64,000 nucleotides of DNA from an uncultured Collinsella sp. (GCA_900540985.1 UQIC01000007.1:1773-65772); one strand, 5' to 3'; counted from the first letter of the stretch, positions 3,664 to 50,242 are shown. Numbers and translations: made by a program. The notes: a model not told the origin generated them from the letters alone.

Positions 3664-3861
3664 CGACTCAGGCCCTCACAACGGCGTGGCTCGCAATCAA
3701 ACGCTTCCCGGATAATAATACCCGTTGCAGGGATCGCCCTGGCTAGTCGCCATCTCGTCCGCCGCTGGAATGAATCCTTACTCCCATTCCTCCGAATACC
3801 GCCCCATGCCTTGTCATCTTGAAACACGGGGAGTAAATGGCGAAATCGCAGATGAAAGGGA

Positions 3862-6903: not shown

Positions 6904-7224
6904 TCCCTAAGGCAGTTCCACTTATCGCAGCCTCAAACGACAGGTGGTCCCCCTCGGGCCGTGCAAAAATCGGAGTATTCTGCAATTTCTCCGCCGGAGA
7001 CATAGAATCGGCCGATTGTTAGACGAACTTTTAGGGCGAAGAGGCCGTCTAGTAAATAATTATTCCACATTTTTATTTAGCGTGTGGATTATCTACTGTC
7101 AAAAAGGCAAAGCCAGCCGCTCGAGCTACCATCTACGGCCAAACTGGTGCTGAATACTCGCGATTTTGCACATCGCAACCTGGGGGACCCGCCCAAAGAG
7201 CGTCAAATACAGCGGGGGAACGCC

Positions 7225-29260: not shown

Positions 29261-29269
29261 GAGCCCTCG

Positions 29270-31828
29270 ATGTTTACTCCGCTTATCACTCATGATTCTG
29301 ACGGCACTGCATTGGCGGCACCCGTTGATGCCGCACGCCGTAATGGCGCTGCATACAAGACGCGCACGATCGACGATCTGCGCATTAAGGACGATCACCT
29401 GCGTGCGGCCATCGAGGGCACGGGACACCTGCTGTTCGACGGCGGCATGGGCACCATGTTGCAGGCCGCTGGCATGAAGGCGGGCGCCCTGCCCGAGCTG
29501 CTCAACTTTGAGGAGCCCCAGGTTATCACTGATATCCAACGTCAATATGTCGAGGCCGGCTGCGACGTGATCACCTCCAACACCTTTGGCGCCAACGCCC
29601 ACAAGCTCGACGGTGCTGCCACTGTGGCAGACGTCTTTGCCGCGGCCGTCGCCTGTGCCCGCGAGGCCGGTGCCCGCTACGTCGCCGGTGACATCGGCCC
29701 CATCGGCGCGCTGCTTCGCCCCTTGGGTACCCTCAGCTTCGACGAGGCCTACGACCTCTTTGCCGAGGAAGTGCGCGCCGGCGTCGCCGCGGGTGTGGAC
29801 CTCTTTATTATCGAGACTATGACCGACCTGGCCGAGATCAAGGCGGCGGTCCTCGCCTGCTGCGAGAACTCCGACCTGCCCGTCTTTGCCACCATGACCT
29901 TTGAGGAAGACGGTCGCACCTTCCTGGGAACGAGTCCCGAGGTGGCCGCCATCACGCTCGACGCCATCGGCGCCGACGTTTTGGGCATCAACTGCAGCCA
30001 AGGACCGGCCGAGCTCCGAGGACTCGCCGCACGTATGCTCACCGTTACCGACAAGCCTGTTATGGTGCAGGCCAACGCAGGACTGCCCCACGTGGACGAC
30101 GACGGCAACACCGTCTTTGATATCCAGGCCCCCGAATACGCCGAAGCCGTCGCCGGCATGATCGCCGACGGCGTGAGCGTCGTGGGCGGCTGCTGCGGCA
30201 CCACGCCGGCGCACATGGCGGCCTTGCGCACGCTTATCGACAACCACACGCCCAGCCCGCGCCGCCGCAAGCCCAGCATGTCGGTCACGAGCGCCCAAAC
30301 GGTCGTGGACCTTCCCTGCGACGGCCACAAGATCGCCGTCATCGGCGAGCGCATCAACCCCACCGGCAAAAAGCGCCTGCAGCAGGCCCTGCGCGACGGC
30401 GACCTGGACTACGTCGTGAGCCAGGGCATCAGCCAGCAGGAACAGGGCGCCGACATTCTGGACGTCAACGTGGGCCTGCCCGAGATCGACGAGGTCAAGA
30501 TCATCCAACAGGCGACCGAACAGCTCCAGGGCTCCACGCTGCTGCCACTGCAGATCGACTCCACCGACCCCGCCGCCGTCGAGGCCGCCGTGCGCCGCTA
30601 CGCCGGCAAGCCCATCATCAACTCGGTCAATGGCAAGCAGCAGATCATGGATGAGATCTTTCCGCTGGTCGCCCACTACGGCACCAACGTTGTCGGCCTT
30701 ACGCTCGACGAAGGCGGCATCCCCGATACCGCCGAGGCTCGCTTCGCCATCGCCGAGCGCATCGTTGCCGAGGCTGCCCGCTACGGCATCGGACCGGACC
30801 GCATCCTCATCGACTGCCTGGTCATGACCGCCTCGACCAATCAACGCCAGGCCGAGCAGATCCTGCGCGCCATGTCCCTGTGCAAGGAGCGTCTGGGCGT
30901 CAAATGCGCGCTCGGCGTGTCGAACATCAGCTTTGGCCTGCCTGCCCGCCCGCTGCTGGGTTCGGTCTTTTTGGCCGCCGCCTTCGGCGCGGGCCTGGAC
31001 GCCCCCATCATGAACCCGGGCTCCAAGCGCTTTATGGATACCGTCTACAGCTATCGCGTCCTGAGCGTTGAGGACGAGGGCTCGACCGGATACATCGAGC
31101 GCTACGCCGGCTGGACCGATCAGTATAAGATCGCCGCAAACCCGGCAGCAGCTCAGGCCGCATCGAGTGATGCCGTGCCCGCTGCTGGCACCGCCGGCAC
31201 CGACGGCAACGACGACCCGATTCGTCGCATGGTCGTCTCGGGCCGCAAAGGCGAGATCGCTGCCGAGACCGAGCGTCTGCTGGCAGACCACGACGCCATG
31301 GACCTCATCAACAATCACTTTATCCCCGCCCTCGACGAGGTTGGCGTCCTCTTTGACCAGGGCAAGTTCTTCTTGCCGCAGCTCATGGCCTCGGCCGAGG
31401 CCGCACGCGTGGGCTTCGACACCATCAAACGCCTGATGCCCGCCGGCGAGATTGCCGACAAGGGCAAGATCTGCGTGGCCACCGTCAAGGGCGACATCCA
31501 CGATATTGGCAAGAACATCGTCAAGATGCTGCTCGATAACTACGGCTACACCGTCTTTGATCTGGGTCGCGACGTCGACCCGCAGGAGGTGCTCAAGACC
31601 GTGCAGGAGCGCGACATTAAGCTCGTCGGCCTCTCGGCGCTTATGACCACCACGGTCGTCGCCATGGAAGAGACCATCAAGCTGCTTCATGCCGAGGTGC
31701 CGGGCGTCAAGATCATCGTGGGCGGCGCCGTACTCACCCCCGAATACGCCAAGCAGATCGGCGCGGACTACTACGCCAAGGACGCCGCCGAAAGCGCTCG
31801 CATCGCCGAAGAGGTCTTTGGGCAGTAA
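29270..31828 (+). CDS. metH: Methionine synthase lacking the activation domain (Hcy S-methyltransferase + pterin-binding + B12-cap + B12-binding)
   Basis: Homocysteine-binding domain with Zn ligands GGCCGTTP. Pterin-binding domain present. B12-binding motif DIHDIGKN with GG..L...Y. 852 aa. Confidence 0.9.
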   Translation: MFTPLITHDSDGTALAAPVDAARRNGAAYKTRTIDDLRIKDDHLRAAIEGTGHLLFDGGMGTMLQAAGMKAGALPELLNFEEPQVITDIQRQYVEAGCDVITSNTFGANAHKLDGAATVADVFAAAVACAREAGARYVAGDIGPIGALLRPLGTLSFDEAYDLFAEEVRAGVAAGVDLFIIETMTDLAEIKAAVLACCENSDLPVFATMTFEEDGRTFLGTSPEVAAITLDAIGADVLGINCSQGPAELRGLAARMLTVTDKPVMVQANAGLPHVDDDGNTVFDIQAPEYAEAVAGMIADGVSVVGGCCGTTPAHMAALRTLIDNHTPSPRRRKPSMSVTSAQTVVDLPCDGHKIAVIGERINPTGKKRLQQALRDGDLDYVVSQGISQQEQGADILDVNVGLPEIDEVKIIQQATEQLQGSTLLPLQIDSTDPAAVEAAVRRYAGKPIINSVNGKQQIMDEIFPLVAHYGTNVVGLTLDEGGIPDTAEARFAIAERIVAEAARYGIGPDRILIDCLVMTASTNQRQAEQILRAMSLCKERLGVKCALGVSNISFGLPARPLLGSVFLAAAFGAGLDAPIMNPGSKRFMDTVYSYRVLSVEDEGSTGYIERYAGWTDQYKIAANPAAAQAASSDAVPAAGTAGTDGNDDPIRRMVVSGRKGEIAAETERLLADHDAMDLINNHFIPALDEVGVLFDQGKFFLPQLMASAEAARVGFDTIKRLMPAGEIADKGKICVATVKGDIHDIGKNIVKMLLDNYGYTVFDLGRDVDPQEVLKTVQERDIKLVGLSALMTTTVVAMEETIKLLHAEVPGVKIIVGGAVLTPEYAKQIGADYYAKDAAESARIAEEVFGQ

Positions 31829-31853
31829 CACAACGGAAACAACCGAGCACCAA

Positions 31854-31891
31854 AACGTGCCGCACGCGCCACTTGGCACGTGCGGCACGTT
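31854..31891 (+). terminator. Strong 13-bp perfect hairpin after metH (terminator-like; no clear T-run)
   Basis: AACGTGCCGCACG...CGTGCGGCACGTT. Confidence 0.35.
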
Positions 31892-31936
31892 AGAATAGAT
31901 AAGACTATGCTCGTTTTGGCAGATAGGAGCGCAAGG

Positions 31937-33301
31937 ATGGCGATCACGCCCGCAGAAATCGCGGAAACCCGCGGCATGGTTGAGGAACAGAACCTCGACA
32001 TCAGGACCATCACCATGGGTGTTTCGCTCATGGGTTGCGGCGACGAGAACCTCGACCGCATGTGCACGAAAATCTACGACCACGTGACGCACACGGCTGA
32101 GCACCTGGTCGAGACCGCCGAGAACCTCGAGCGCGAGTACGGTATCCCCATCGTCAACAAGCGCGTTTCCGTCACCCCGGTGGCGCAGATCGCCGCGTGC
32201 TGCAAGGATGAGGACCTCACCCCCATCGCGCATGCCCTCGACCGCGCGGCCGAGACGCTCGGCATCGATTACCTGGGTGGCTTCTCCGCGCTCGTTCAGA
32301 AGGGCATCGGCGATGCCGACCGCCGCGTCATCCAGTCCATCCCCCAGGCGCTCGCCACCACCAGCCGCGTCTGCTCCAGCGTCAACGTCGCCAGCCTGCG
32401 TGCCGGTATCAACATGGACGCCGTGCTTATGGCCGCCCAGACCATCATCGATGCCGCCAAACTCACGGCCGACCAGGATTCCGTCGGCGCTTCCAAGTTT
32501 GTCTGCTTTGCCAACATGGTCGAGGACTCCCCGTTTATGGCGGGCGCCGTCCACGGCGGTGGCGAGGCCGACGCCGTCATCAACGTAGGCGTCTCGGGCC
32601 CCGGCGTTATGGCCGCAGCCTTGGAGACACTGCCCGATTCCGCATCGATGATGGAAGTCGCCGAGAAGATCAAGCAGACCGCCTTTAAGATCACCCGTGC
32701 CGGCGAGCTCATGAGCCGCGAGGCCGCCCATCGCCTGGGCGTCGAGAAGGGCATTGTCGACCTGTCGCTGGCACCTACGCCTGCCATCGGCGACTCCGTC
32801 GCGCGCATCCTCGAGATCATCGGCGTGGGCACCTGCGGTGGCCCCGGCACGACCTGCGCGCTCGCCATGCTCAACGATGCCGTCAAGAAGGGCGGCGTCA
32901 TGGCCAGCTCCAGCGTGGGCGGCCTCTCTGGCGCTTTCATCCCCGTGTCCGAGGACGCCGGCATGATCGCCGCCGTCGAGGCCGGCGCACTTTCACTCGA
33001 GAAGCTCGAGGCCATGACCTGCGTGTGCTCCGTTGGCCTGGACATGATCGCCATCCCCGGCGTCACCCCGGTCGAGACCATCGCCGGCATCATCGCCGAC
33101 GAGATGGCCATCGGCGTCATCAACAACAAGACCACGGCCGTCCGCGTGATTCCTGCCATCGGCAAGGGCGTGGGCGACTGCGTCGAGTACGGCGGCCTGT
33201 TCGGCCGTGCGCCCATCATGCCGGTGAACCCCAACGCCGGCACCGTGCTTGCCCACCGTGGTGGACGCTTCCCGGCACCGCTGAACTCGCTGAAGAACTA
33301 G
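31937..33301 (+). CDS. UPF0210 / DUF711 family protein
   Basis: N-terminus [34 protein letters not shown]. About 454 aa. RBS AGGAG. Confidence 0.8.
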
Positions 33302-33546: not shown

Positions 33547-36285
33547 TTACTCGTCGAGGAGATCCTCTGGCATGTCGTTGCCGTCGCCTAGGTCGACTGG
33601 AGCCTCTTCGGTGTCGGCTGCGGCCTCGGCGCCCTCGCCTTCGGGTTTTTCCTTGGCTGCCGTCATACGGGCGACAGCGCAGATGCGGTCGTTGTCGTCG
33701 ACGGTCATCATCTTGACGCCCTGGGTGGCGCGGCCAGTCTGGCTGATCTCGTCGGTCTTGACGCGAATGACCGTCGCGCCCTCCGTCACGATGAACAGCT
33801 CGTGCTGCGGGCCCACCGTCTTCATGGCCGCGAGGTTACCCTTACGCTCGGTCATTTGAATGGTGTAGACGCCCTGACCGCCGCGATTCTGCTCCGGGTA
33901 GTCCGCGACCGGCGTGCGCTTGCCGTAGCCGCGCTCGGTGATGACGAACAGATCGCCGTTGCCGTTAGTGACTTCCATGCCCAGAACGCTCACGCCGTCC
34001 TTCAGACCGATACCGCGAACGCCGCTGGTATCGCGGCCGGTGGCGCGCACCTGCTCCTCGGAGAACATGATCGCCTTGCCCGCGGTGGTGGCCAGGATAA
34101 TCTTGTCGCCCTCGCGCACGCGGCGCACGTTCAGCAGCGCGTCGTCGTCACGCAGGTTGATAGCGATCAGGCCGTCGCGACGGCTGCGGTCATATGCGCT
34201 CATCACGGTCTTCTTGACCATGCCGCTCTTGGTGGCAAACATCAGGTACTCGTCGGCCGGGAACTCGCGGCAGCTGATGACGCTCGCGATCTTCTCGCCT
34301 TCCTCGAAGGGCAGCAGGTTGACGATCGCGGTACCGCGCGCCTGGCGCGTACCCACCGGCAGCTCGTGCACCTTCAGGCGATAGACCTTGCCCTTGCTCG
34401 AGAAGAACAGCACGTACTCGTGCGTGGACGCGATGAACATCTCGTCGATAACATCGTCCTCTTTGAGGTTGACGCCCGACACGCCCTTGCCACCGCGCTT
34501 CTGGGCACGGTAGGCAGCCACCGGGATACGCTTAACGTAGCCGGTGTGGGTGATGGTCACGACCATATCCTCGTCGGCGATGAGGTCCTCGACATCCAGG
34601 TCCTTCTCAACCTGGCTGATCTCGGTACGGCGCTTGTCGCCAAACTTCTTGGAGATCTCGCGCATCTCTTCCTTGATGACGCCCAGAATCTTCTCCTCGT
34701 GCGCCAGCAGGTCCTCGTAGTAGGCGATGGCGCGGCGCAGGCCGTCCAACTCTTCTTGGATCTTGTCGCGCTCTAGGCCGGTCAGGCGGCGCAGCTTCAT
34801 CTCGAGGATGGCCGTGGTCTGTTCGGGCGTAAAACCAAAGCGCTCGATCAGGCGACTGCTGGCCTCGGAGTCGGTCTGCGAGGAGCGGATGATGCTAATG
34901 ACCTCGTCGATATGGTCAAGGGCCATCAGGTAGCCCTCGAGGATATGGGCACGCGCCTGGGCCTTCTTAAGGTCGAAGCGGGTGCGGCGAGTGACGACGT
35001 CGACCTGGTGGTCGATGTAGTGCTGCAGCATCTCGCGCAGGCTCAGGCATTTGGGAACGCCGTTGACAAGCGCCAGGTTGTTGGCGCCGAAGGTCGTCTG
35101 CAGCGAGGTGTACTTATACAGGTTGTTGAGCACGACCTGCGGAATGACGCCCTTCTTGAGCTCGATGACCAGACGGATGCCCTTCTGGTTGGACTCATCG
35201 CGCATATCCGAGATGCCCTCGATGCGCTTGTCGTTGACGAGCTGGGCGATCTTCTCCTGCAGGGTGCCCTTGTTGACCATGTAGGGAATCTCGGTAAAGA
35301 CCAGACGGCTGCGGCCGGTCTTGGTGGACTCCACATGTGCCTTGGCACGCACGGTAATGGAGCCGCGGCCGGTCTCGTAGCTCTGCTTAATGCCGGCGCT
35401 ACCCATGATGATGGCGCCGGTGGGGAAGTCCGGACCGGGCATGATCTGCATGAGCTCGTCGACGGTGGCGTCGGGGTTGTCGATCAGGTAGCAGGTGGCC
35501 TCGATCGCCTCGGTGAGGTTATGCGGGGCGATGTTGGTGGCCATGCCGACGGCGATGCCCTGACTGCCGTTGACCAGCAGGTTGGGGAAGCGCGCAGGCA
35601 GCGCCACGGGCTCGGCGAGCGATTCGTCGTAGTTGGGCTGCCAGTCGACGGTATCCTTCTGCAAGTCACGCAACAGTTCCATGGCGGGCTTTGCCAGGCG
35701 GCTCTCGGTGTAACGCATGGCCGCCGCGCCGTCGCCGTCGATGTTGCCGAAGTTGCCGTGACCGTCGATGAGCGGCGTGCGCATGGAGAACCACTGCGCC
35801 AGGCGGACCATGGCCTCATAGACCGCGGAGTCGCCATGCGGGTGGTACTTACCGATAACTTCGCCGACCGTCCAGGCCGACTTCTTGTGCGGGCGGTTGG
35901 GGTAGATGCCGCTCTCGTTCATCGCGTACAGGATGCGGCGGTGCACCGGCTTTAAGCCGTCACGCACGTCCGGCAGGGCGCGCGCCGTGATAACCGACAT
36001 CGAATACTCGATGAACGACTGCTTCATCTCGCGACCGAACTCCGAAATCTGGAGCTGGCCGCCGTTGATATCCTCGCCGGCCGAGGCGCCACGGTCGACT
36101 TCGCCAAAGCTCTCCTCGAGCTCGGCGTCGTCGTCCTCTTCCTCATCATCGGCATCGGGGTTATAGGCGTCCGGATCGCCGTCCTCGCCCTGCTCAGCAC
36201 GGGCAAGCAGGCGCTTCAGATCGTCGGGCATACCGGCATCGCCGGCCTCGCCCATACCCTCGTTGTTGTTGATATCGTCTGCCAC
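33547..36285 (-). CDS. gyrA: DNA gyrase subunit A, with an acidic N-terminal extension of about 75 aa
   Basis: QRDR region [30 protein letters not shown]. Six GyrA-box beta-pinwheel blades and an acidic C-tail. GTG start with AGGAGG 4 nt upstream. Confidence 0.95.
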
Positions 36286-36440: not shown

Positions 36441-38513
<2,073 letters not shown>

Positions 38514-38576: not shown

Positions 38577-39140
38577 TTAAGGCTCTTTTTTGCTTTGCAC
38601 GCCCTTGGCCCACTCGGCACTGGCTCTCATGGCGTTCTCGAGGGCCTCGCGCAGTTTTTGGTCCTCGATGGGTGCCACTTGGTGCTCGATCTCGGCACGC
38701 TCGGCATCGCTTAGGTCGGCATGCGGAGCCGGCGGACGCTCGGCCACGGCCGGACGCAGGCGCTCTTTTGCAGCGGGCGGTGTGTGGCCGGGGGCGGTCG
38801 TCTTGAACACCAGCCCATCGACGTGCGCGCCGGCGCGCTCCATGCGCGCGCGGATGATCTCGCGCAACAGCGTCATTTCCTGCGTCCACGAGGGCGAGTC
38901 GAGATACACCAGCAGCTCATTGGACTCGGGCAGGTAGCGCAGGCCCGTCACATGCCGCCCCTCGTGCGTGCCCGAGCACACCGCGTTCCACGCGCGATAG
39001 ACCGCGCGCGACTCCTCGGCAGCCTCCATCTGCGCGCGGCGCTCAGGTGTTGCAGCCGCCAGGATGCGCTGGCGCTCTGCGTTCAAAAATCCACTGAAGG
39101 CAACCGTCTCGCTCTCGCGCTCGTAATTAGCACGTCTCAC
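38577..39140 (-). CDS. DUF721-domain protein (DciA-like helicase-loading candidate)
   Basis: Conserved position between recF and gyrB. Central ...LLVYLDSPSWTQEMTLLREII... resembles a DUF721 core. Overlaps the recF stop. Confidence 0.6.
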   Translation of the reverse strand: MRRANYERESETVAFSGFLNAERQRILAAATPERRAQMEAAEESRAVYRAWNAVCSGTHEGRHVTGLRYLPESNELLVYLDSPSWTQEMTLLREIIRARMERAGAHVDGLVFKTTAPGHTPPAAKERLRPAVAERPPAPHADLSDAERAEIEHQVAPIEDQKLREALENAMRASAEWAKGVQSKKEP

Positions 39141-40233
39141 CCATGCTCACCACCTTGGCTCGATCAAGCAGGTCATCGGTAAAGTACCCCAGGTTGGTCG
39201 TGGTTATGACCGTCTGGATATCATCGCCGATCAGCCGCAGGAAAGCACCGCGACGCTCGCCGTCGAGCTCGCTCATCACGTCGTCCAAAAGCAGCAGCGG
39301 GGCGGTGCCCAGGACATCGCGAGCCACGGCCACCTCGGCCACCTTCCAGGACAGTACCAACGTTCGCTGCTGTCCTTGGCTGGCAAATGAACGGGCGGAG
39401 CGACCCGCAACGGTAAACTCAATCTCGTCGCGATGCGGTCCCACCAGCGTCACGCCGCGGCGAATTTCCTCGTCGGCGTGCCCATCAAGGGCAGCCAGCA
39501 TGCGCTCGTACGCCCAGCCCTTCAGCTCTTCGCGATCCTCGACCTGGGGCAAATCCCCCAGCGTGGACGCATAGGACACGTTGGCGGCTTCACCGGACGC
39601 CACTTGCCCGTAGGCAGTACGCACATGGCCCGCCAGCCGGTCGAGCAGGGCCAACCGGTGCACGAGCAGAGCCGCGCCCGCGCGGGCAATCGAATCGTTC
39701 CACGCGCCGAGCATCTCGCGGCAGCACCAGGCCTCCTTGAGCAAGGCGTTACGCTGGGTCACGCAGCGACCATAGGTGCTCGCAAGATCGGCATAGCGTG
39801 CGCTCAGTTGCATGCCAAAGTCGTCGAGGGCGGCGCGGCGCACACTGGCGCCTCGCTTAACCATGTCCAGATGGTCGGGGCAAAACAGCACGCTCGGCAG
39901 AACCCCGCGCACACCGGCGGCAGAGCATCTCTTGCCGTTGCGGCTAAACGAGCGTTTACCGTCCTCCGCGCTCAATCCCATATCAAGTACGCGGCCGTCG
40001 CCCTCGAGCCTCAGCTCGATCTTGCACGAGCCCACGCCATCATGGACGAGCTCGGCTGCGGTCGGATGCCTAAACGAGGCGCCGCTCGTCAGCAGCTGCA
40101 GCGCCTCTATGAGATTGGTCTTTCCCGCCGCGTTGGGTCCCGCAAGTATCGTCACGCCCTCGTCCAGGGCAAGACGATAGTTATCGAAGCTGCGGTAGTG
40201 CGCGACGGAAAGATCGCGGGCGAACATGGTCAT
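39127..40233 (-). CDS. recF: DNA replication and repair protein RecF
   Basis: Walker A GPNAAGKTN. SMC-like signature and Walker B LLLDDVMSELD. Confidence 0.9.
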   Translation of the reverse strand: MTMFARDLSVAHYRSFDNYRLALDEGVTILAGPNAAGKTNLIEALQLLTSGASFRHPTAAELVHDGVGSCKIELRLEGDGRVLDMGLSAEDGKRSFSRNGKRCSAAGVRGVLPSVLFCPDHLDMVKRGASVRRAALDDFGMQLSARYADLASTYGRCVTQRNALLKEAWCCREMLGAWNDSIARAGAALLVHRLALLDRLAGHVRTAYGQVASGEAANVSYASTLGDLPQVEDREELKGWAYERMLAALDGHADEEIRRGVTLVGPHRDEIEFTVAGRSARSFASQGQQRTLVLSWKVAEVAVARDVLGTAPLLLLDDVMSELDGERRGAFLRLIGDDIQTVITTTNLGYFTDDLLDRAKVVSMGETC

Positions 40234-40242
40234 GGCGCAACG

Positions 40243-41346
40243 CTAGATGCGGACCGGCATGACCAGGTACAGGTAGTTGATCTTGTCGTAGGACTTGAAG
40301 ATGCCCGCCTGCGAGTAGCTCTTGAGCTCCAGCGTGATCTCCTTCTCCTTGGACAGGGCATTGAGGCAGCCGAAGATGTAGTGGTAGTTGAAGGCGATGG
40401 TACCCGACTCGCCCTCGGCCTCGACATCGATCGTCTCCTGTGCAAGGTCCTGGTCATTGGAAATGGAGGACAGGCCCATCTGCCCGTTCTCGACATCGAT
40501 CTCGAACTTGACGGCGGGGTTGGCGCTCGCGATAACGGCCACGCGCTTGAGGGCGGCGTTAAAGGCGGCGACGTCGATCTTGACGCTCGTCACGCACGAA
40601 TCGGGGATGAGCTGCTTGTAGTTGGGGTACACGCCCTCGATGCGGCGCGACACGTAGGTGGTATTGCCGGCCTCGAAGACGACCTGGGTGTCGGTAGCCC
40701 CGATCATGATGGTCGCCTGGCTGGCCATGATGTTCAGCGCGTCGTTAAAGGCGTCAGCCGGAACGTTGAGCTCAAAGGAACCCTCGAGGGTCGAGGTCTC
40801 GACCTGCGTATCGCATACGGCCAAGCGGAAGGAATCGGTCGCCACCAGGCGCACGGTGTTGTTCTCGACCTTCATGTGCACGCCGCCCAGGATGGGGCGG
40901 GCCTTGTCGGTCGAGGTGACGCGCCATACGCGCCCGACCATCTCGGACAAGATATCGGTCGGCAGCTCCACGGCACTCTCGATGGCATAGGCCGGAAACT
41001 CGGGGAAGTCATTGGCATCGAGCGTGTTCAGGCGGAACGAGCTCTTCTCGCAACCAATCAGCACCTGGCGCTCGGACAGCTCAAAGGTGACCGGGGCATC
41101 GGGGAGGGTCTTGGTGATATTGGAGAGCATCTTACAGGGGATAACCATCTCGCCCTCTTCTTCGACATGCGCCGCGATGCGATGACGGATCGAGATGGTG
41201 TAGTTAGAGGTCTGGAATTCCAAGATGCCGTCTTGCGCCTTAACGAGCACGCCCGACAGGATGGGGAGGGTGGATGCCGAAGTGACACCCTTCATAACGA
41301 CGCCGATGGCTTGTGTAAGCGAGCTCTGGCTGACGGTGAACTTCAT
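40243..41346 (-). CDS. dnaN: DNA polymerase III beta sliding clamp
   Basis: 367 aa with a three-domain beta-clamp pattern. Located immediately downstream of dnaA. Confidence 0.95.
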   Translation of the reverse strand: MKFTVSQSSLTQAIGVVMKGVTSASTLPILSGVLVKAQDGILEFQTSNYTISIRHRIAAHVEEEGEMVIPCKMLSNITKTLPDAPVTFELSERQVLIGCEKSSFRLNTLDANDFPEFPAYAIESAVELPTDILSEMVGRVWRVTSTDKARPILGGVHMKVENNTVRLVATDSFRLAVCDTQVETSTLEGSFELNVPADAFNDALNIMASQATIMIGATDTQVVFEAGNTTYVSRRIEGVYPNYKQLIPDSCVTSVKIDVAAFNAALKRVAVIASANPAVKFEIDVENGQMGLSSISNDQDLAQETIDVEAEGESGTIAFNYHYIFGCLNALSKEKEITLELKSYSQAGIFKSYDKINYLYLVMPVRI

Positions 41347-41584
41347 CTTTTAATACCTTTCTATAGATATAAATATCTTAATAATAGTAATAGCACTGAC
41401 GAAACTGTTGATTACTCCCAAAGACGCAGGTCAGACCCAGAAAGAGAATCGACAGCAACCTGTGTGCAACAGGGGTGGTTTTCCACGTTCAAAACCTGCG
41501 CAAAACTTTTCATCACCGCGGGTTGGGTTTTAGACACCTTATGCCCGTGGTTTCGACAAGTTTTCAACAGGTGTCTCTATTTCC
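41347..41584. promoter_or_regulatory. oriC segment (dnaA-dnaN spacer): AT-rich DUE plus DnaA-box-like 9-mers
   Basis: 41347-41400 is about 20% GC (TTTAATACCTTTCTATAGATATAAATATCTTAATAATAGTAATAG). Box-like sites are TTTTCCACG at 41479, TTTCGACAA at 41551 and TTTTCAACA at 41561. Confidence 0.5.
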
Positions 41585-43309
41585 CTACGAGCGCAGTGTA
41601 ATTTTATCGCGCAGCGACTTAAGGTCTTCGGTGACGGTGCGGTCTTCCTGGATCATCTTCTGGACTTTTTTGTAACTCGTGCTGACGGTCGAGTGGTTGC
41701 GGTTGCCAAATTCGGCGCCCACCGCCGTGGTCGTCATCTCGCACATCTCGATGGCCAGGTAGATAGCGATATGGCGTGCTTTGGCGATATTGGCGTTGCG
41801 ACGCGGGCCGATGAGCTCCTCGTGCGTCACGCCGTACTGCTCTTCGATGACGGACTGAACCGTTTGCACGTTGATCTTTTTGGCCGATGTGTCGAAGTAC
41901 TGGCTGGCGATGGCGTCGATATCGTCAAAGGTGAGCTCCCCGCCCTCGCGTTCGCGGTCGCCCGCCTCGCCGGCGCAGCGCTCGCAGAAGCTCTCGAGTT
42001 CGCGGATGTTGGTGCCCGACACCTCTGCCATGTGCTTAAAGTGCTCATCGGTCAGGTGCCCGCCGTCGCCCCCGTAGGCCGCCAGCAGTGAGTCGTCGCC
42101 TGCCTCGGGAGCGGCGACGATGGTGTTCTCGTAATAGCGCTGCAAGATCTTGTATTTCATCTCGTAGCTGGGCTCTGCGACCAGGCAGAGCATGCCGGCG
42201 TTGAAGCGGCTGGTCAGACGCTCGTCCATGCTCAGGTCCTTGGGGGCGCGGTCTGCCGCGATGACGACCTTCTTGTTGTTGCGGATGAACTCGTCCATGA
42301 GCTGGAAAAAGTAGTCCACGCTCGCGCGCTTGCCGATGATGTTTTGGATGTCATCGATGATGAGCACGTCCACGCCGTGGTACGCCTGCATGATGGGGGC
42401 GTTGCTCTTCTTTTGACGGTCGAACTCGGTCATCAGGTCGTCCAGATATGCCTGGGAGTTGGCATACTTGACCTTGATCTCGGGCGACTTCTCGGCGAGC
42501 TCGTTTTTGATGGCAAGCAGCAGGTGCGTCTTGCCCAGGCCCGATTTGCCGTAGATGAAAAGTGATGTGCATGTGCCGCGCTCGTCCGCGAGGGCGGCAA
42601 ACTTGAGTGCCGAGCGATAGGCATGGCTGTTCTCGGGGCCGTAGACAAAGTTCTCAAAGGTAAATTTTGAGTTCGCGGCGAGCGGGGCTCCATCCGTATT
42701 CTGCTCGGCCGGCACGGTCGGTGCTGGCATGGGTGAAGCGGGGGTCGCAGCTTGCGTGGATTTAGTCGGCGCTCCGCCCTTCATCTGGTTCATCATGCGG
42801 CGAAAATCGTCGGCTGAGAGCGTGTTCTTGATTGCAATGCCCGAATCCGCGCCCGCCGCTGCGTCGTGAGCGATGGGCATGTGCGTGACGGGTGCGTTCG
42901 TTGACGTCGCTACCGCGGTCGGCAACGGCGCCATGGTTTCACGGGAAACATCGCTGTGCTGGTGCTCGATTGTCGGCACGTCGCTTGCGGAGGCTGGTAC
43001 CGTCGGGGAAGCAGCGGGAGCCGTGGCGGGCGCCGTCGCGGCAGCGGATTCCGTCGCGGCGCCTTGCGGCGCCACGATGTCGAGCGCAATCGGTGCAAAG
43101 GCGATTTCTTCCAGATAAGCCTCAATAGTCGGCTGATGCTTTTTGAGCTGCGCGATGGCAAAGCGCGAGGGGGCCTCGATCGTGAGCGTATCTTCGGTCA
43201 GGCTTATGGCCCGCGATTGCCCCAGCATGTTGATGAGGCGTGCATCTTGGCCGTCGCGCTGGCAAAAGGCGATGGCATCCCCCAGGATGATGCTTGCTTC
43301 CTCGTCCAC
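41585..43309 (-). CDS. dnaA: Chromosomal replication initiator DnaA
   Basis: AAA+ Walker A GKSGLGKTHLL, sensor motifs and a C-terminal domain IV HTH ...HSTVSTSYKKV.... A long Ala/Pro/Thr-rich linker sits after domain I. Confidence 0.95.
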   Translation of the reverse strand: MDEEASIILGDAIAFCQRDGQDARLINMLGQSRAISLTEDTLTIEAPSRFAIAQLKKHQPTIEAYLEEIAFAPIALDIVAPQGAATESAAATAPATAPAASPTVPASASDVPTIEHQHSDVSRETMAPLPTAVATSTNAPVTHMPIAHDAAAGADSGIAIKNTLSADDFRRMMNQMKGGAPTKSTQAATPASPMPAPTVPAEQNTDGAPLAANSKFTFENFVYGPENSHAYRSALKFAALADERGTCTSLFIYGKSGLGKTHLLLAIKNELAEKSPEIKVKYANSQAYLDDLMTEFDRQKKSNAPIMQAYHGVDVLIIDDIQNIIGKRASVDYFFQLMDEFIRNNKKVVIAADRAPKDLSMDERLTSRFNAGMLCLVAEPSYEMKYKILQRYYENTIVAAPEAGDDSLLAAYGGDGGHLTDEHFKHMAEVSGTNIRELESFCERCAGEAGDREREGGELTFDDIDAIASQYFDTSAKKINVQTVQSVIEEQYGVTHEELIGPRRNANIAKARHIAIYLAIEMCEMTTTAVGAEFGNRNHSTVSTSYKKVQKMIQEDRTVTEDLKSLRDKITLRS

Positions 43310-43324
43310 TGTCTCTCCCGTTCT

Positions 43325-44677
43325 TTAGCTCTGAGCTCGCACGCGAGCGGCGCCGAGTTCGGTCAGATGGTATTTCTGGCCATGCTTGATGACCAAGCCG
43401 GCCTGCGCCAAGTCATTGAGCGTGCGTGACCAAGTGGGGGCCGAGTTTCCAAACGCCCTCGCCAGATCGGTTGCACCGCACGCTTGATTTTGCGCTAGAT
43501 AGCCCAGCGCGGCGTTGCCGCGATCGCTTACGAACACGTCCGGTTGTGGCTGCGCATACTGATTTGCTGCATTAGGATACATCATTTGAGCTGCTGGTTG
43601 TTGAGAACTCTGCATCGGCGGCATTTGCTGTTGAAAACTTTGAGGCCACTGTTGGTAAGGCTGCGGAGGCATCTGCTGGGCCCAAGGGTTGTACTGCTGC
43701 TGCGGCATCTGCTGGTACGGCTGCTGATATCCCTGCTGGTACTGCTGCGGGAACTGCTGGCCATACCCCAGTGGCGGCATCTGCTGATATGGATATCCCT
43801 GTTGGTACGGCTGATAGCCCATTTGCTGGCCACCCGGTGCGCCCGTCGCCTGCTGCATTGCTGCTGCATCCTGATCCGCCAGCGGCACGGCCTCTGGCAT
43901 GTTTGGCGGCATCGACATCGATGTCGCCTGGGGCTCTTGTGTGGGAAGCATTCCGGGCTGCTGCATCTGCCTCACGGGGGGCTGCATCTGCTGCGTTGCC
44001 ATGGGCTGCTGCGCAAAAGCTCCCGGCAGGGGATATGTGGGCTGCTCCGTCTCGGGCCGCACGGCAGCATCGCGTCCGCCGGCACGCTCGATTTCCTGCA
44101 CTCGTTTAGGGTTCAGGCTTACCGTAACCACGGTGCCGTTGCCCATGTTGTCCTCGATGGATACGGCACCGCCGGCGTTTTCCAAATACTCCTGCACCAT
44201 GGGAAACCCTGCTCCGGTTCCACGGATATAGCGCTTCATCTTGCTGTTTGCGCTGGTAACGCCAAAGTCGAAAGCGCGTTCCTTGTCGTCGATGCCGGGT
44301 CCTTGATCAGCAAAGCGGATGGTGTCTCCGCCGTCCAGAATCGAGATGATGGGCTCGGCAAAGTGCGCGTGGATAAAGTTTTCGACAATCTCGCGGATGA
44401 CCATGAGCGAGATGTGGCCACCTTGTTCTTTCATGCACTGGTAGACGGTGTTGGTCGTCTCTTCCAAATACGTGCGGACATCTTGCGGATCAATGACGAT
44501 CACACGCGGTGTCGACAGCATGTCGTCATAGACGGCGATACGCGCGGCGTACATGGCTTTTGGCGCCTGCGTGGTCGTCTGCTCGCCTTCCGCACGCTCT
44601 TCGCGCACGCCGGTGATGTGCTCGTTGTCGGGTGCCGGGTCTCCAGAATCGACCATGGTGTAAAAGTCATCAGACAT
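43325..44677 (-). CDS. GHKL (HATPase_c-like) ATPase domain + Q/Y/P-rich low-complexity region + C-terminal winged-helix HTH protein
   Basis: N-box REIVENFIHAH. G1 box DQGPGID. G2 box GTGAGF. About 170 aa enriched in Q, P, Y and M. C-terminal MarR-like segment LGYLAQNQACGATDLARAFGNSAPTWSRTLNDLAQAGLVIKHGQKYHLTELG. Ends 16 nt before the dnaA start. Confidence 0.7.
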   Translation of the reverse strand: MSDDFYTMVDSGDPAPDNEHITGVREERAEGEQTTTQAPKAMYAARIAVYDDMLSTPRVIVIDPQDVRTYLEETTNTVYQCMKEQGGHISLMVIREIVENFIHAHFAEPIISILDGGDTIRFADQGPGIDDKERAFDFGVTSANSKMKRYIRGTGAGFPMVQEYLENAGGAVSIEDNMGNGTVVTVSLNPKRVQEIERAGGRDAAVRPETEQPTYPLPGAFAQQPMATQQMQPPVRQMQQPGMLPTQEPQATSMSMPPNMPEAVPLADQDAAAMQQATGAPGGQQMGYQPYQQGYPYQQMPPLGYGQQFPQQYQQGYQQPYQQMPQQQYNPWAQQMPPQPYQQWPQSFQQQMPPMQSSQQPAAQMMYPNAANQYAQPQPDVFVSDRGNAALGYLAQNQACGATDLARAFGNSAPTWSRTLNDLAQAGLVIKHGQKYHLTELGAARVRAQS

Positions 44678-44920
44678 GCCGCTCGCAATCTTTCAAAAGG
44701 TTTCGAACAAATAGTAGCTCACCGCGCAATGTTTCTCATCTTTCGACAACTTTTCAAAACCTGTTGAAAACTTTGGAAAACGGGCGAAAAGTTCTCAACA
44801 TTGCCAACATGACCTGTTGAAAACTCGATGAAATATCGTGAAAAGTTGTCATGCACCGCTAAATCGAGCTTGGCTTATGGGGGAACCGTGTGAACTGCGC
44901 AACCTTTTACCTTTGATTTC
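44678..44920. promoter_or_regulatory. DnaA-box-like repeat cluster (candidate primary oriC / inc region)
   Basis: At least 8 copies of TTTTCAACA / TTTCGACAA / TTTCGAACA-like 9-mers in both orientations. These include two exact CCTGTTGAAAAC 12-mers at 44760 and 44812. Genes diverge from this point. Confidence 0.45.
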
Positions 44921-44950
44921 TTGACATTTGAACATTGATTTCCCTACAAT
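44921..44950 (+). promoter_or_regulatory. Sigma70-type promoter of rpmH operon (TTGACA-18-TACAAT)
   Basis: Consensus -35 and -10 hexamers about 70 nt upstream of rpmH. Confidence 0.45.
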
Positions 44951-45022
44951 CTTCAAGCTCACGTGTCTATATCTGCGTCCGCGTCCCCGCGGACACTCGA
45001 AATGCAGCAGGAGGAACTTAAG

Positions 45023-45157
45023 ATGAAGCGTACGTATCAGCCTAATAAGCGTAAGCGTGCCAAGACCCATGGCTTCCGTGCCCGTATGGCCACTAAGGGT
45101 GGTCGTGCCGTGCTCGCTCGTCGTCGCGCCAAGGGCCGCAAGCGTCTCACTGTCTAG
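45023..45157 (+). CDS. rpmH: 50S ribosomal protein L34
   Basis: [54 protein letters not shown]. Confidence 0.9.
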
Positions 45158-45177
45158 CAGCGATACACACATCTCGC

Positions 45178-45516
45178 ATGAAGACTATTAAGTCTCGGCA
45201 AGATTTCGAGCATGTGTTCAGTCAGGGGCGTCGTTTTAATCACCCTCTGATTCGAATGACCATATGTGAATCGGTTGGCGAAGGCGACTCCGGAAGGGTC
45301 GCCTTCGTTGGTGCTAAACGGCTCGGTTGCGCTGTCGTGCGCAACCGTTCTAAGCGTGTGATGCGCGAGGCCGCCCGCAGCTGCGGATTTCCCGTTGCGG
45401 GTTATGACATCATCTTGTTCGCAACTCCCAAGACGAGGGTTTCCTCGCCGCAGGAGATGGACAAGGCATTGCGTTTGCTTATGAAACGCGCCGGCGTTGC
45501 CGGGGAGGAGCGATGA
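45178..45516 (+). CDS. rnpA: RNase P protein component
   Basis: RnpA motif ...RNRSKRVMREAAR.... Follows rpmH. Confidence 0.9.
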   Translation: MKTIKSRQDFEHVFSQGRRFNHPLIRMTICESVGEGDSGRVAFVGAKRLGCAVVRNRSKRVMREAARSCGFPVAGYDIILFATPKTRVSSPQEMDKALRLLMKRAGVAGEER

Positions 45517-47180: not shown

Positions 47181-47212
47181 GTTTCCACGTCCCCTTTTTT
47201 TGTCAAAAGTTC
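47181..47212 (+). terminator. Rho-independent terminator after jag
   Basis: AGGGGACGTGG...CCACGTCCCCT followed by T7. Confidence 0.65.
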
Positions 47213-47247
47213 TCGATACACTGATTTTTGTCAGAAAGGAGCTTTCG

Positions 47248-47985
47248 TTGTTAGTACTTACTGATCAGCAGGCTGACGAGATGTTGTGTCGTCTAACTTC
47301 CTATTGCAAAGAGTATTCCTTGAGCGTAACTGATGTTGAACTGAGGAAATGTATTCAGCATTTGGATTTGGTTCTGGAAATAAATAAGACAACCAATCTC
47401 ACCCGTATTCTTAACGTAGAAGATGCTGCAGTACTTCATATCCTTGACTCACTTGTTTTGCTCCCTTATATCGATAAGGCTCCTGAGGGAGCTTTGCTCG
47501 ATATGGGAACAGGTGCGGGCTTCCCTGGTATTCCATTAACCATAACCACGCATCGTAAAGCAACTTATATTGACTCTGTTGGCAAGAAGGTTGATGCAGT
47601 CAATTCCTTTGTCCATGCTCTTGGATTGAAACATGCTCATGCGGTCCATGATCGTCTTGAAGAATATGCTCGAAGCCATAAGAAGCAGTTCTCTGTCGTA
47701 ACCGCCCGCGCACTGGCCCCTTTACCGATTCTTGTTGAGTATGCGGCGCCGTACCTCAAGGATGGAGGGCTATTTGTTATCACCAAGGGCAATCCTTCGG
47801 ATGAGGAGCTTGCTTCCGGCATGTCAGCAGCAAAGATTTGCGGCTTCACTTTGCTTCTGAATGACGCTATCGATTTGCCTGAGGGCCTGGGCCACAGGGA
47901 GTTCATTGTTCTTAAGAAGAGTCATCCAGCATCCGTTTCATTGCCTCGTGCAAATGGCATGGCCAAGAAGAATCCGCTTGCCTAG
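47248..47985 (+). CDS. rsmG: 16S rRNA (guanine527-N7)-methyltransferase RsmG (GidB)
   Basis: SAM motif LDMGTGAGFPGIPL. TTG start 6 nt after AAGGAG. The track ORF starts 48 nt earlier at an ATG without an RBS. GC content is about 43-45%. Confidence 0.8.
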   Translation: MLVLTDQQADEMLCRLTSYCKEYSLSVTDVELRKCIQHLDLVLEINKTTNLTRILNVEDAAVLHILDSLVLLPYIDKAPEGALLDMGTGAGFPGIPLTITTHRKATYIDSVGKKVDAVNSFVHALGLKHAHAVHDRLEEYARSHKKQFSVVTARALAPLPILVEYAAPYLKDGGLFVITKGNPSDEELASGMSAAKICGFTLLLNDAIDLPEGLGHREFIVLKKSHPASVSLPRANGMAKKNPLA

Positions 47986-47986
47986 A

Positions 47987-48002
47987 TGTTTCACGTGAAA
48001 CA
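47987..48002. promoter_or_regulatory. parS site 1 (TGTTTCACGTGAAACA)
   Basis: Perfect 16-bp palindrome matching the ParB-binding parS consensus. Confidence 0.8.
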
Positions 48003-48025
48003 TAATGGATACTAACAACTTGCAG

Positions 48026-48041
48026 TGTTTCACGTGAAACA
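48026..48041. promoter_or_regulatory. parS site 2 (TGTTTCACGTGAAACA)
   Basis: Identical perfect palindrome. Confidence 0.8.
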
Positions 48042-48064
48042 TGGCGGTTGATATCGAATCGGAA

Positions 48065-48080
48065 TGTTTCACGTGAAACA
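48065..48080. promoter_or_regulatory. parS site 3 (TGTTTCACGTGAAACA)
   Basis: Identical perfect palindrome, 40 nt upstream of parA. Confidence 0.8.
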
Positions 48081-48119
48081 TCCTCCGTTTGATAGCTTTA
48101 ATACACACCAGGAGGGACC

Positions 48120-48920
48120 GTGGGATTTCGCGACGTTAAGCGTTCTAAGAGCGCAAAAGACACGCGTATTATTGCAATCATCAATCAAAAAGGCGGCGTC
48201 GGTAAGTCAACGACGGCTGTAAACCTTGCAGCAGCACTGGGTGAGCAGGGTCGTAAGACGCTGATTGTCGATTTTGATCCGCAAGGAAACAGCACTAGCG
48301 GATTTGGAATTGAAAAAGAAGACCTTGACTACTGCATTTATGATGCATTGTTGAACGATGTGCCGGCAGAATCACTTGTTCTTGATACAAATTGTAAAAA
48401 GGTATTCGTTATTCCGGCTACAATTCAGCTTGCAGGCGCGGAAATTGAGCTCGTAAGCGCAATCGCTCGTGAAACCCGCCTCAAAGATTTGCTTGAGCCG
48501 ATTCAGGACGAGTTCGATTTTATTTTCATTGACTGTCCCCCCTCGCTCGGCCTGCTTACTATCAACGCCTTGACCGCAGCAGACAGCGTTTTGATTCCGA
48601 TCCAATGCGAGTATTATGCACTCGAGGGCGTTACGAAGCTGCTTGAGTCAATGAAGATGGTCAAATCACGTCTGAACAAGGGCTTAGACACCTATGGTGT
48701 GCTTATGACCATGTATGACTCGCGTACTTCTCTATCGAATCAGGTTGTTGAGGAGGTTCAATCGTACTTTGGTGATAAGGCGTTTAAGACGCTGATCCCC
48801 CGTACGGTTAAAATCTCCGAAGCTCCGTCTTTTGGAGAACCGGTAATTACCTATGCACCTCAAAATAAGGGTGCAAAAGCGTATATGAACCTTGCAAAAG
48901 AGGTGATCAAGCGTGCCTAG
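48120..48920 (+). CDS. parA: Chromosome partitioning ATPase ParA/Soj
   Basis: Deviant Walker A KGGVGKST. GTG start after AGGAGG. Confidence 0.9.
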   Translation: MGFRDVKRSKSAKDTRIIAIINQKGGVGKSTTAVNLAAALGEQGRKTLIVDFDPQGNSTSGFGIEKEDLDYCIYDALLNDVPAESLVLDTNCKKVFVIPATIQLAGAEIELVSAIARETRLKDLLEPIQDEFDFIFIDCPPSLGLLTINALTAADSVLIPIQCEYYALEGVTKLLESMKMVKSRLNKGLDTYGVLMTMYDSRTSLSNQVVEEVQSYFGDKAFKTLIPRTVKISEAPSFGEPVITYAPQNKGAKAYMNLAKEVIKRA

Positions 48921-49818
48921 TGTAAAGAAACGTGGCGGATTGGGACGTGGACTCAATGCTTTGGTCTCAGAGGCCGAGTATGAGACCGGTGGTTCGACTA
49001 CATCGGCTGCAACTACTTCATCTGAAATAAAACTACCTATTGAGGATATCGTTCCCAACCCTAATCAGCCGCGAATTCACTTTAACGAAACTGAACTTCG
49101 TGAGCTGAGCGAGTCAATCCAAGAACATGGCGTTTTGCAGCCGCTATTGGTTCGCAAGCATGGAAACGGCTATGAGATCATTGCCGGTGAGCGTCGTTAC
49201 CAGGCGTCAAAACTTGCTGGTCTTGAGGAACTGCCTGTCATCATTAAAGATGTTAATGATGAAGAGATGCTAGCTCTTGCTCTTATCGAAAACCTTCAGC
49301 GTTCTGATCTAAATCCCGTCGAAGAGGCTAAGGGCTACCGCCAGCTTATCGATGCCAGCGGTATGACCCAGGAGGCATTGTCGAAGGCGGTAAGCAAGTC
49401 ACGTTCTGCAATTACAAACTCGCTGCGTCTTCTTGACCTCCCCGAAGTCGTGCAGCAGATGATTTTTGAGGGCAAACTTACTGCTGGTCATGCACGTGCG
49501 ATTCTTGCAGTTCCCTATGAGGATGCTCGAATTCGACTTGCTGAGAAGGTTGTTGCTGAGGGCCTTTCCGTAAGAGCGACAGAAAATCTTGCTCCGTTGT
49601 TTTCTGCCGGAGAGACACCTAAAACTCCGAGGCCTGCAACGCCCCAGTCTTTTAAAAAGGCTGCCCGCGTGCTTCGTCAGGTTTTTAATACCAACGTGCG
49701 TGTGAAGAGCTCGCGTGGAAAAAATAAGATTGAGATTGAGTTTAAAGACGAGGAAGAGCTCTCTCGTATTCTTGGCGAAATGATTCAGTTTGATCAAGGA
49801 GACCAAGATGAGGAATAG
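48913..49818 (+). CDS. parB: Chromosome partitioning protein ParB/Spo0J
   Basis: ParB box GERRYQA, HTH and CTP-binding region GLGRGL. Overlaps parA by 8 nt. Confidence 0.9.
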   Translation: MPSVKKRGGLGRGLNALVSEAEYETGGSTTSAATTSSEIKLPIEDIVPNPNQPRIHFNETELRELSESIQEHGVLQPLLVRKHGNGYEIIAGERRYQASKLAGLEELPVIIKDVNDEEMLALALIENLQRSDLNPVEEAKGYRQLIDASGMTQEALSKAVSKSRSAITNSLRLLDLPEVVQQMIFEGKLTAGHARAILAVPYEDARIRLAEKVVAEGLSVRATENLAPLFSAGETPKTPRPATPQSFKKAARVLRQVFNTNVRVKSSRGKNKIEIEFKDEEELSRILGEMIQFDQGDQDEE

Positions 49819-50226: not shown

Positions 50227-50242
50227 TGTTTCACATGAAACG
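50227..50242. promoter_or_regulatory. Degenerate parS site 4 (TGTTTCACATGAAACG, 14/16)
   Basis: Lies between the parAB terminator and the rlmN 3' end, inside a hairpin region. Confidence 0.5.

Follow-up and report, generated by a model that had tools for sequence, protein, structure and literature searches.

The locus and its genes

This work concerns the region around the dnaA gene in a 64,000-nucleotide stretch of DNA from an uncultured Collinsella sp. (GCA_900540985.1 UQIC01000007.1:1773-65772) and the chromosome replication origin (oriC) that this region is likely to contain. The whole stretch is referred to as the window. The genes of the locus are arranged in the order gyrA-gyrB-dciA-recF-dnaN-dnaA-[ATPase-wHTH] <> rpmH-rnpA-yidC-jag-rsmG-parS x3-parA-parB (Table 1), where ATPase-wHTH denotes a gene encoding an ATPase domain and a winged-helix (wHTH) domain. 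The flip of gene orientation at 44678-45022, which was noticed in a preliminary description of this DNA, was confirmed. Pfam searches confirmed the identities of dnaN, dnaA, the HATPase_c and wHTH domains, rnpA and yidC, and also those of ParA and ParB. The order of the rpmH-dnaA-dnaN-recF-gyrB neighbourhood was also found in ten relatives. On the complete C. aerofaciens chromosome DAJPGF010000001.1 (2.28 Mb) the locus occupies 2.181-2.192 Mb. This set of genes and sites constitutes the full classic surroundings of a bacterial origin. Judged from its sequence, the locus is very probably the oriC of Collinsella aerofaciens, in which a shifted DnaA-box sequence, TTTTCAACA, is used. The origin itself would be an ordinary, textbook, DnaA-dependent one with a lineage-specific box variant.

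A variant DnaA box on both sides of dnaA

Sequences related to TTTTCAACA are concentrated at this locus. At up to one mismatch, TTTTCAACA has 18 matches in the window versus 6.9 expected, and 10 of the 18, including all four exact copies, lie within 41507-44823. The shorter word TTTCRACA has nine matches (2.65 expected), seven of them in 41551-44822. The family of 9-mers that the preliminary description reported on both sides of dnaA is thus present far above chance; its member TTTCGACAA, however, was read one base out of register, and the box is (G/C)TTTCGACA. The 12-mer CCTGTTGAAAAC reported there occurs in three exact copies, at 44760-44771, at 44813-44824 (the start had been given as 44812) and as the reverse complement at 41560-41571. 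A further copy, which has one mismatch, is found at 43627 inside the ATPase-wHTH coding DNA; four matches at up to one mismatch compare with 0.25 expected in the 64-kb window. Neither the canonical box TTATCCACA (7 matches versus 5.9 expected) nor the actinobacterial box TTGTCCACA (12 versus 8.9) is enriched in the window at up to one mismatch, and neither has such a match in the intergenic blocks. In the preliminary description, too, the 9-mers of both blocks were said to differ from the E. coli and actinobacterial consensus sequences. The local consensus departs from the canonical box at positions 3 and 6, and the orthologous sites in relatives are canonical.

The first scan of genome contigs with DnaA yielded 80 Collinsella loci; one of them, L001, matches the window, a Collinsella aerofaciens contig, at 100% identity. 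Their intergenic DNA is 94-100% identical, which is too similar for footprinting. These loci were therefore set aside, and ten divergent loci were gathered instead via 50%-cluster representatives and follow-up homologue searches. The ten relatives comprise seven Coriobacteriaceae, with DnaA identities of 55-64%, and three Atopobiaceae, including Olsenella uli and O. profusa; the Atopobiaceae DnaA representative P0128 is 39% identical. All one-gap 9-mers were ranked without a prior in the origin intergenic DNA of these relatives, the window being excluded. The word TTTTCNACA ranked first, with 30 occurrences versus 7 in 15-fold more flanking DNA (p ~ 2e-42), and TTNTCAACA ranked second. TTTTCNACA is also among the top words in 80 metagenome loci, where it was counted 107 times versus 4 in 60 dereplicated upstream regions. 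The enrichment of the variant TTWTCNACA marks a statistically significant cluster of DnaA boxes.

The orthologous columns of the alignments exchange TTTTCAACA, TTATCAACA, TTTTCCACA and perfect TTATCCACA. This exchange is a direct link between the variant and the canonical DnaA box, and the sites can therefore be regarded as DnaA boxes in which the sixth position is relaxed and mostly not C. Across the family, the consensus reads A-(G/C)-T-T-(T/A)-T-C-N-A-C-A; at position 6, A is preferred over C in the Coriobacteriaceae and over T, G or C in the Atopobiaceae. Our literature search for TTTTCAACA or TTATCAACA as a described box, or for a Collinsella origin, returned nothing relevant.

The distribution of the boxes was determined with a position weight matrix (PWM) trained on the relatives only, with the window excluded. 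All nine matches of at least 14 bits fall in 41507-44823, and no other such cluster is present in the 64 kb. The leave-one-out box density is 10.3 per kb in the rpmH-proximal (upstream) intergenic region, 12 per kb in the ATPase-dnaA gap where this is present, and 6.5 per kb in the dnaA-dnaN spacer, versus 0.12 per kb in the dnaA coding sequence and 0-0.11 per kb in the flanks. The two box clusters separated by dnaA, on which the preliminary description based a bipartite origin, are thus evident; both of them may be needed for its function.

A separate pair of boxes was seen at 7050-7104, where the AT content is the second highest in the window. The two boxes, TTATTCCACA ... TGTGGATTA, look canonical, are inverted relative to each other and are located downstream of an asparaginase gene, far from the origin cluster.

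The predicted unwinding module in the dnaA-dnaN spacer

The dnaN-proximal end of the spacer contains a predicted unwinding module. On the minus strand it consists of TAATCAACA, GTTTCGTCA, GTG, CTA TTA CTA TTA TTA and AGATATTTATATCTATAGAAAGGTATTAAAAG, followed by the ATG of dnaN. An extreme AT-rich stretch beside dnaN had been noted in the preliminary description, and the calculations agree with it: the lowest-GC 55-mer of the window is 41337-41391 (18% GC), the segment 41347-41393 has 17% GC, and the lowest duplex stability, whether calculated over 30, 45 or 60 bp, is at 41348-41392, about 5 standard deviations from the mean of the nearest-neighbour energies over 64 kb. The background GC content given there as 65% has to be corrected to 60% for the window. 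The (TAR)x5 run occurs a single time on either strand of the window. The segment 41347-41378 also holds the Shine-Dalgarno sequence of dnaN (AAAGG, minus strand). No Rfam family was found in the intergenic blocks, and the strand of the unwinding element has no unusual fold (z = 0.2).

The module is conserved across two families. In the MAFFT alignment A1, box 1 through the trios is ungapped in all 11 loci, the trio core TATTA-T is invariant (T54 A55 T56 T57 A58 T60), and an AT-rich tail stands at the matching place in 11 of 11. The orthologues of box 1, all in one register, are ATATCAACA, TAATCCACA, TTATCCACA (twice), TAGTCCACA, TTGCCCACA and TAATCCCCA, with TAATCAACA as the copy of the window. 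At the position of box 2 (GTTTCGTCA) the relatives have GCGTCCACC, TCGTCCACA, TCATCCACC and ACATCAACC. The 3-nt spacer between box and trios is kept in eight Coriobacteriaceae sequences. In 33 of 36 unique metagenomic spacers a box is followed by 4 nt and then by at least three trios; position 6 of these 33 trio-proximal boxes is A in 14, G in 12, T in 7 and never C.

The arrangement corresponds to the basal unwinding system (BUS) of bacterial origins. The published rule demands a box with up to two mismatches within 16 bp of at least three NAN trios, the first of which is usually 3'-GAT-5' (PMC8287927). In the window, box 1 has two mismatches to TTATCCACA, the gap including box 2 is 12 bp, and the five trios start with 3'-GAT. 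The Coriobacterium glomerans entry in the supplementary table of Pelliciari 2021 (PMC8287927) is the complement of TAATCAACA GTTTCAACC GCC TTATTACTA; Atopobium parvulum, Eggerthella lenta and Slackia have analogous BUS entries there. Box 1 of C. glomerans is identical to the TAATCAACA of the window, and GTTTCAACC stands at the position of box 2. Since C. glomerans and the others are listed there, the unwinding element has already been predicted for the class, for C. glomerans in an almost identical form.

The middle of the spacer holds a small palindrome, CCTGTGTGCAACAGG (41459-41473). Relatives carry a convergent pair of DnaA boxes at this place, such as TGTTGATAA...TTTTCAACA in two of the ten divergent loci (L082 and L085). 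The palindrome could be the remnant of such a pair, or else a weak terminator of dnaA.

The upstream array

The second cluster is the array of six boxes between the ATPase-wHTH gene and rpmH. It is colinear in seven Coriobacteriaceae, and TTTTCAACA, TTATCAACA and TTTTCCACA interchange at its shared columns. At its end lies a conserved GTGAGCTACTAT block, in which TAT is invariant (alignment A6). The TACTAT at 44711-44716 may represent the -10 element of the ATPase-wHTH/dnaA operon; the consensus promoter scan of 41200-45200 did not call it, and the only promoter-like match in that region was the rpmH promoter.

The position of the array raises the question whether the origin is monopartite. 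The spacer alone could be oriC, and the upstream array and the box pair inside the ATPase-wHTH gene could be purely transcriptional operators for autoregulation by DnaA. The spacer alone holds a complete unwinding module, the upstream array ends right at the conserved -10-like element, boxes of the Atopobiaceae flank a TATACT just upstream of dnaA, and such an origin would have a precedent in Actinobacteria, as is generally known. However, the box density is higher upstream than in the spacer, and an array of at least six sites that is colinear across a family goes beyond the usual need of autoregulation. Bipartite origins of matching layout are also known in Firmicutes and Epsilonproteobacteria. 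We consider a monopartite origin possible but not probable.

The ATPase-wHTH gene and its internal boxes

The gene between the array and dnaA encodes a protein with a histidine-kinase-like ATPase domain, a disordered Q/P-rich linker and a winged-helix domain. The Pfam family HATPase_c matches at 1e-10, and the matches to HVO_A0261_N (31.8 bits) and MarR_2 (21.8 bits) are below the curated cut-offs of 35 and 27, respectively. The ATP-binding motifs are intact, namely the N box with E96 and N100, the G1 motif DQGPG and the G2 motif, and an N-terminal FYPFV motif and a TWSR helix are invariant. A Foldseek search with an AlphaFold2 (AF2) model, which was built from a shallow alignment and is only moderate in the N-terminal domain, returned generic histidine-kinase catalytic-domain matches; the model resembles such catalytic domains but has no dimerisation/His domain. 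No NCBIfam family covers the protein, and the source annotations vary between anti-sigma regulatory factor, MarR regulator and ATP-binding protein. In the loci of Coriobacteriaceae, Atopobiaceae and metagenomic relatives (L081-L090 and L091-L170) a divergent rpmH lies upstream of the gene in 70 of 70 and dnaA downstream in 56 of 57, at identities to the query down to 39%. The gene is probably co-transcribed with dnaA.

The intragenic box pair is located in the Q-rich linker, about 300 nt upstream of dnaA. Two of the ten divergent loci have a similar pair (L085, ~3614-3645; L087, ~3669-3700) in a different frame, where different residues are encoded. The retention of the pair despite the change of frame suggests selection on the DNA. 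In the Atopobiaceae, two boxes flank TATACT in the gap between the ATPase-wHTH gene and dnaA instead. The intragenic pair and the boxes in the gap may mark an internal dnaA promoter or operator. A third intragenic match, at 44379, is dictated by the invariant peptide IVENF and is therefore probably incidental.

The repeats stand in front of and inside the gene for a winged-helix protein. They could thus be operators through which this protein regulates its own operon, and the AAGTTTTCAACAGG repeats would then not be DnaA boxes at all. Conservation of the motif extends past the 9-mer to an A at position -1 and a G/C at position 0, and some copies form palindromes to which a dimer would be suited (e.g. 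TTTTCAA-N6-TTGAAAA). Copies that are single or in direct repeat are nevertheless common, and the core fits eight of nine positions of the relaxed DnaA box TTWTNCACA. The tandem direct boxes leading into the trios, a DnaA-specific arrangement, consist of this same motif and have its AG flank, and perfect TTATCCACA stands at orthologous sites in relatives. These two facts make operators of the winged-helix protein unlikely, and we assign them a low probability. The published BUS predictions for the Coriobacteriia genomes of Slackia and Eggerthella make use of box-like 9-mers as well, although the presence of the gene in these genomes was not checked.

The DnaA protein

The DnaA of the window is divergent, with less than 40% identity outside close relatives. 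Its TIGR00362 score of 309 bits is under the cut-off of 343.9 bits, and NCBI labels for such proteins are often 'DnaA/Hda family' or 'ATP-binding protein'. The Walker A motif GKSGLGKT, the Walker B motif LIIDD and the arginine-finger motif RLTSRF are retained. A hydrophobic Met occupies the position in the initiator-specific motif (ISM) that corresponds to the single-stranded DNA-contacting I190 of B. subtilis. Helix 5 of domain IV reads RNHSTVST versus RDHTTVLH in E. coli. Asp433 of this helix, described as highly conserved, is Asn in C. aerofaciens and Ser in the Atopobiaceae. C is found at box position 6 in 6 of 21 sites of the lineages with Asp433, versus 1 of 26 in those with Asn or Ser (Fisher p = 0.035, not phylogenetically corrected), and A dominates this position in both groups alike. 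The connection of residue 433 with a C in the sixth box position is no more than suggestive.

Assignment of the locus as the probable replication origin

The origin assignment is supported by the word enrichment, the exchange of orthologous boxes, the conserved unwinding module, the parS sites with parAB, and the sign change of the GC skew. At up to three mismatches, parS has five matches in the window versus 0.18 expected, three of which are perfect. These perfect sites and parAB lie 3 kb from the locus. Two further parS-like sites with two mismatches are found at 42935-42950, inside dnaA, and at 50227-50242. The GC skew is -0.027 on the left, between the start of the window and dnaN, and +0.034 on the right, between rpmH and the end of the window. 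The skew within the window is consistent with the locus.

Several observations weigh against the assignment. The strict canonical box is absent from both blocks. Of the eight base-contacting positions of DnaA (PMC5043019), five differ from E. coli (P423T, D433N, T435S, L438S and H439T), for which reason the box specificity is itself an inference. Within the window, the cumulative G-C curve reaches its minimum at 34,716, at a distance of 6.6 kb from the unwinding element, and falls nearly as low again at ~40 kb; the trough as a whole is broad (34.7-41 kb) and not sharp. The characterised actinobacterial origins, those of Mycobacterium and Streptomyces, are monopartite and located in the dnaA-dnaN spacer, so the upstream array may be regulatory only.

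An alternative is that the boxes cluster incidentally in AT-rich promoter DNA and that the real origin lies elsewhere on the chromosome; in its favour, the cumulative skew minimum of the window is not exactly at the locus. The extreme enrichment p-values, conserved across two families and 80 metagenome loci, speak against this, as do the lack of any other cluster of matches of at least 14 bits in 64 kb, the three parS sites with parAB nearby, and the flip of the skew sign across the locus. An origin elsewhere is extremely improbable.

Proposed mechanism of initiation

We propose that DnaA occupies double-stranded boxes with the pattern (A)(G/C)TT(T/A)TC(A>C,G,T)ACA at 44740-44823 in the upstream array, at 43599-43637 within the ATPase-wHTH gene and at 41406-41569 in the spacer. 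Unwinding would start at the dnaN-proximal end of the spacer, with DnaA on the tandem TAATCAACA and GTTTCGTCA (41414-41397, minus strand). From these boxes DnaA would be guided onto the five plus-strand trios (41393-41379). The filament of ATP-DnaA would then stretch the plus strand and open the adjoining 17%-GC DNA at 41347-41393. The helicase would be loaded at the opened DNA with the help of the loader-type protein DciA, whose gene (38577-39140) is four genes away; loading of the DciA type is suggested by the DciA-family gene between recF and gyrB. The upstream array could have two roles. It could be a second sub-region for DnaA assembly, as in the bipartite origins of B. subtilis and Helicobacter pylori, or an autoregulatory operator at which DnaA would repress or tune the ATPase-wHTH/dnaA operon. 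Most likely, the array serves both.

A further proposal is made tentatively and with considerable doubt. In the Coriobacteriales, initiation may have been rewired by two linked changes. One is a non-C sixth box base together with the replacement of otherwise near-invariant contact residues of helix 5, including Asp433, and the other is an origin-embedded orphan histidine-kinase-type ATPase-wHTH protein, with DnaA boxes inside its coding sequence, as a lineage-specific initiation regulator. By binding to DnaA or to the DNA of the origin, such a protein could make firing dependent on ATP or on a signal.

Features of the locus and its surroundings

The positions of the main features are collected in Table 1. 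The orthologue of the DciA-family gene is too divergent for Pfam in several relatives. The genes rsmG, parA and parB (47200-49818) have a GC content at third codon positions of only 0.43-0.48, and their region has 47-51% GC versus 60% in the window, which is odd for origin-proximal housekeeping genes. Beside gyrA, an open reading frame of 1194 aa (29147-32731, minus strand) has no Pfam match at E <= 0.01.

Table 1. Genes, boxes and other elements of the Collinsella locus; positions are counted from the first nucleotide of the window
Feature	Position	Strand	Remarks
gyrA	33547-36285	-	
gyrB	36441-38489	-	
dciA	38577-39140	-	Pfam 28.4 bits; between recF and gyrB
recF	39127-40233	-	
dnaN	40243-41346	-	all three Pfam DNA_pol3_beta domains match
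AT-rich part of the predicted unwinding element	41347-41378		between DnaA-trios and dnaN start codon
Five DnaA-trios	41379-41393	+	5'-TAA TAA TAG TAA TAG-3', which is 3'-GAT AAT GAT AAT AAT-5' away from the boxes
3-nt G/C spacer	41394-41396		GTG on minus strand; between proximal box and trios
Trio-proximal degenerate DnaA box (box 2) GTTTCGTCA	41397-41405	-	abuts box 1
BUS box 1 TAATCAACA	41406-41414	-	PWM 12.3 bits; points toward trios and dnaN
DnaA box TTTTCATCA	41507-41515	+	PWM 14.0 bits
Tandem direct boxes GTTTCGACA-A-GTTTTCAACA	41550-41569	+	PWM 10.5 and 19.7 bits; beside dnaA stop codon; include the exact 12-mer
dnaA	41585-43309	-	574 aa; Pfam Bac_DnaA and Bac_DnaA_C
ATPase-wHTH gene	43325-44677	-	450 aa; 15 nt upstream of dnaA
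Intragenic box pair AGTTTTCAACAG, 18 nt, AGTTCTCAACAA	43599-43637	-	PWM 19.7 and 16.0 bits
Putative -10 element TACTAT of ATPase-wHTH/dnaA operon	44711-44716	-	just downstream of array
Upstream DnaA-box array	44740-44823		six boxes, PWM 10 to 19.7 bits
Array box CTTTCGACA	44740	+	
Array box TTTTCAAAA	44751	+	
Array box TTTTCAACA	44762	-	
Array box TTTTCCAAA	44772	-	
Array box TTCTCAACA	44792	+	
Array box TTTTCAACA	44815	-	
rpmH promoter TTGACA-18-TACAAT	44921-44950	+	11/12 consensus positions; divergent from array
rpmH	45023-45157	+	by reading frame and homologues in related loci, no Pfam scan of the window copy
rnpA, yidC, jag/khpB, rsmG, parA, parB	diverging from 45023	+	
Three perfect parS sites TGTTTCACGTGAAACA	47987-48080		39 bp apart; between rsmG and parA, upstream of parA-parB

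Significance

Among the Actinomycetota of the gut, Collinsella and related bacteria are abundant, and we know of no experimentally characterised origin in this group. The box variant is lineage-specific, and the unwinding module is already predicted for sister genera. The box consensus AGTTWTCNACA with its non-C sixth base, together with the exact predicted unwinding site, can improve origin calling for growth-rate (peak-to-trough) estimates. The same two elements support the rotation of genomes whose DnaA falls under the annotation cut-off, and help in the design of oriC-based or origin-compatible genetic tools. The ATPase-wHTH gene and the divergent recognition helix of DnaA are leads worth bench work and are less ordinary than the origin itself.

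Comparison with known systems

The BUS of bacterial oriC was reportedly described by Richardson in 2016 at the incC region of B. subtilis. To our knowledge, the BUS elements of the class Coriobacteriia are predictions that have had no experimental test. The Collinsella module resembles the BUS defined in B. subtilis incC (Pelliciari 2021, PMC8287927) in its tandem boxes, its short G/C spacer, its run of at least three 3'-(G/A)AT-5' trios, its AT-rich tract and its position in the dnaA-dnaN spacer. It differs in the consensus of the boxes, which have A (or G or T) and not C at position 6, and in the predicted helicase-loading partner, which is DciA and not DnaD/DnaB/DnaI.

Bipartite origins are represented by incAB and incC of B. 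subtilis, by oriC1 and oriC2 of Helicobacter pylori (PMC3479198) and by the origin of Clostridioides difficile (PMC7561715). As in these, two box clusters flank dnaA in Collinsella, and unwinding, which is predicted here, is confined to the dnaN-side sub-region. In contrast to them, Collinsella has an extra gene of 1.35 kb between the upstream cluster and dnaA, the two clusters are 3.1 kb apart, and the extra gene carries a box pair of its own.

With the oriC of Mycobacterium and Streptomyces (TTGTCCACA / YWRTCCACA boxes) Collinsella shares the phylum, the dnaA-dnaN location and a long DnaA domain II. Unlike in these genera, TTGTCCACA is not enriched in Collinsella, a box-rich upstream region is present, and helix 5 of DnaA reads RNHSTVST versus RDHTTVMY.

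Lineage-specific boxes are known from cyanobacteria (TTTTCCACA) and epsilonproteobacteria (TCATTCACN) (PMC5043019). The Collinsella box follows the same pattern, a shift of the 9-mer at one or two positions accompanied by changes of the helix-5 contacts at 435, 438 and 439. It is distinguished from both by the shift at position 6 and by the replacement of Asp433 itself, by Asn in C. aerofaciens and by Ser in the Atopobiaceae.

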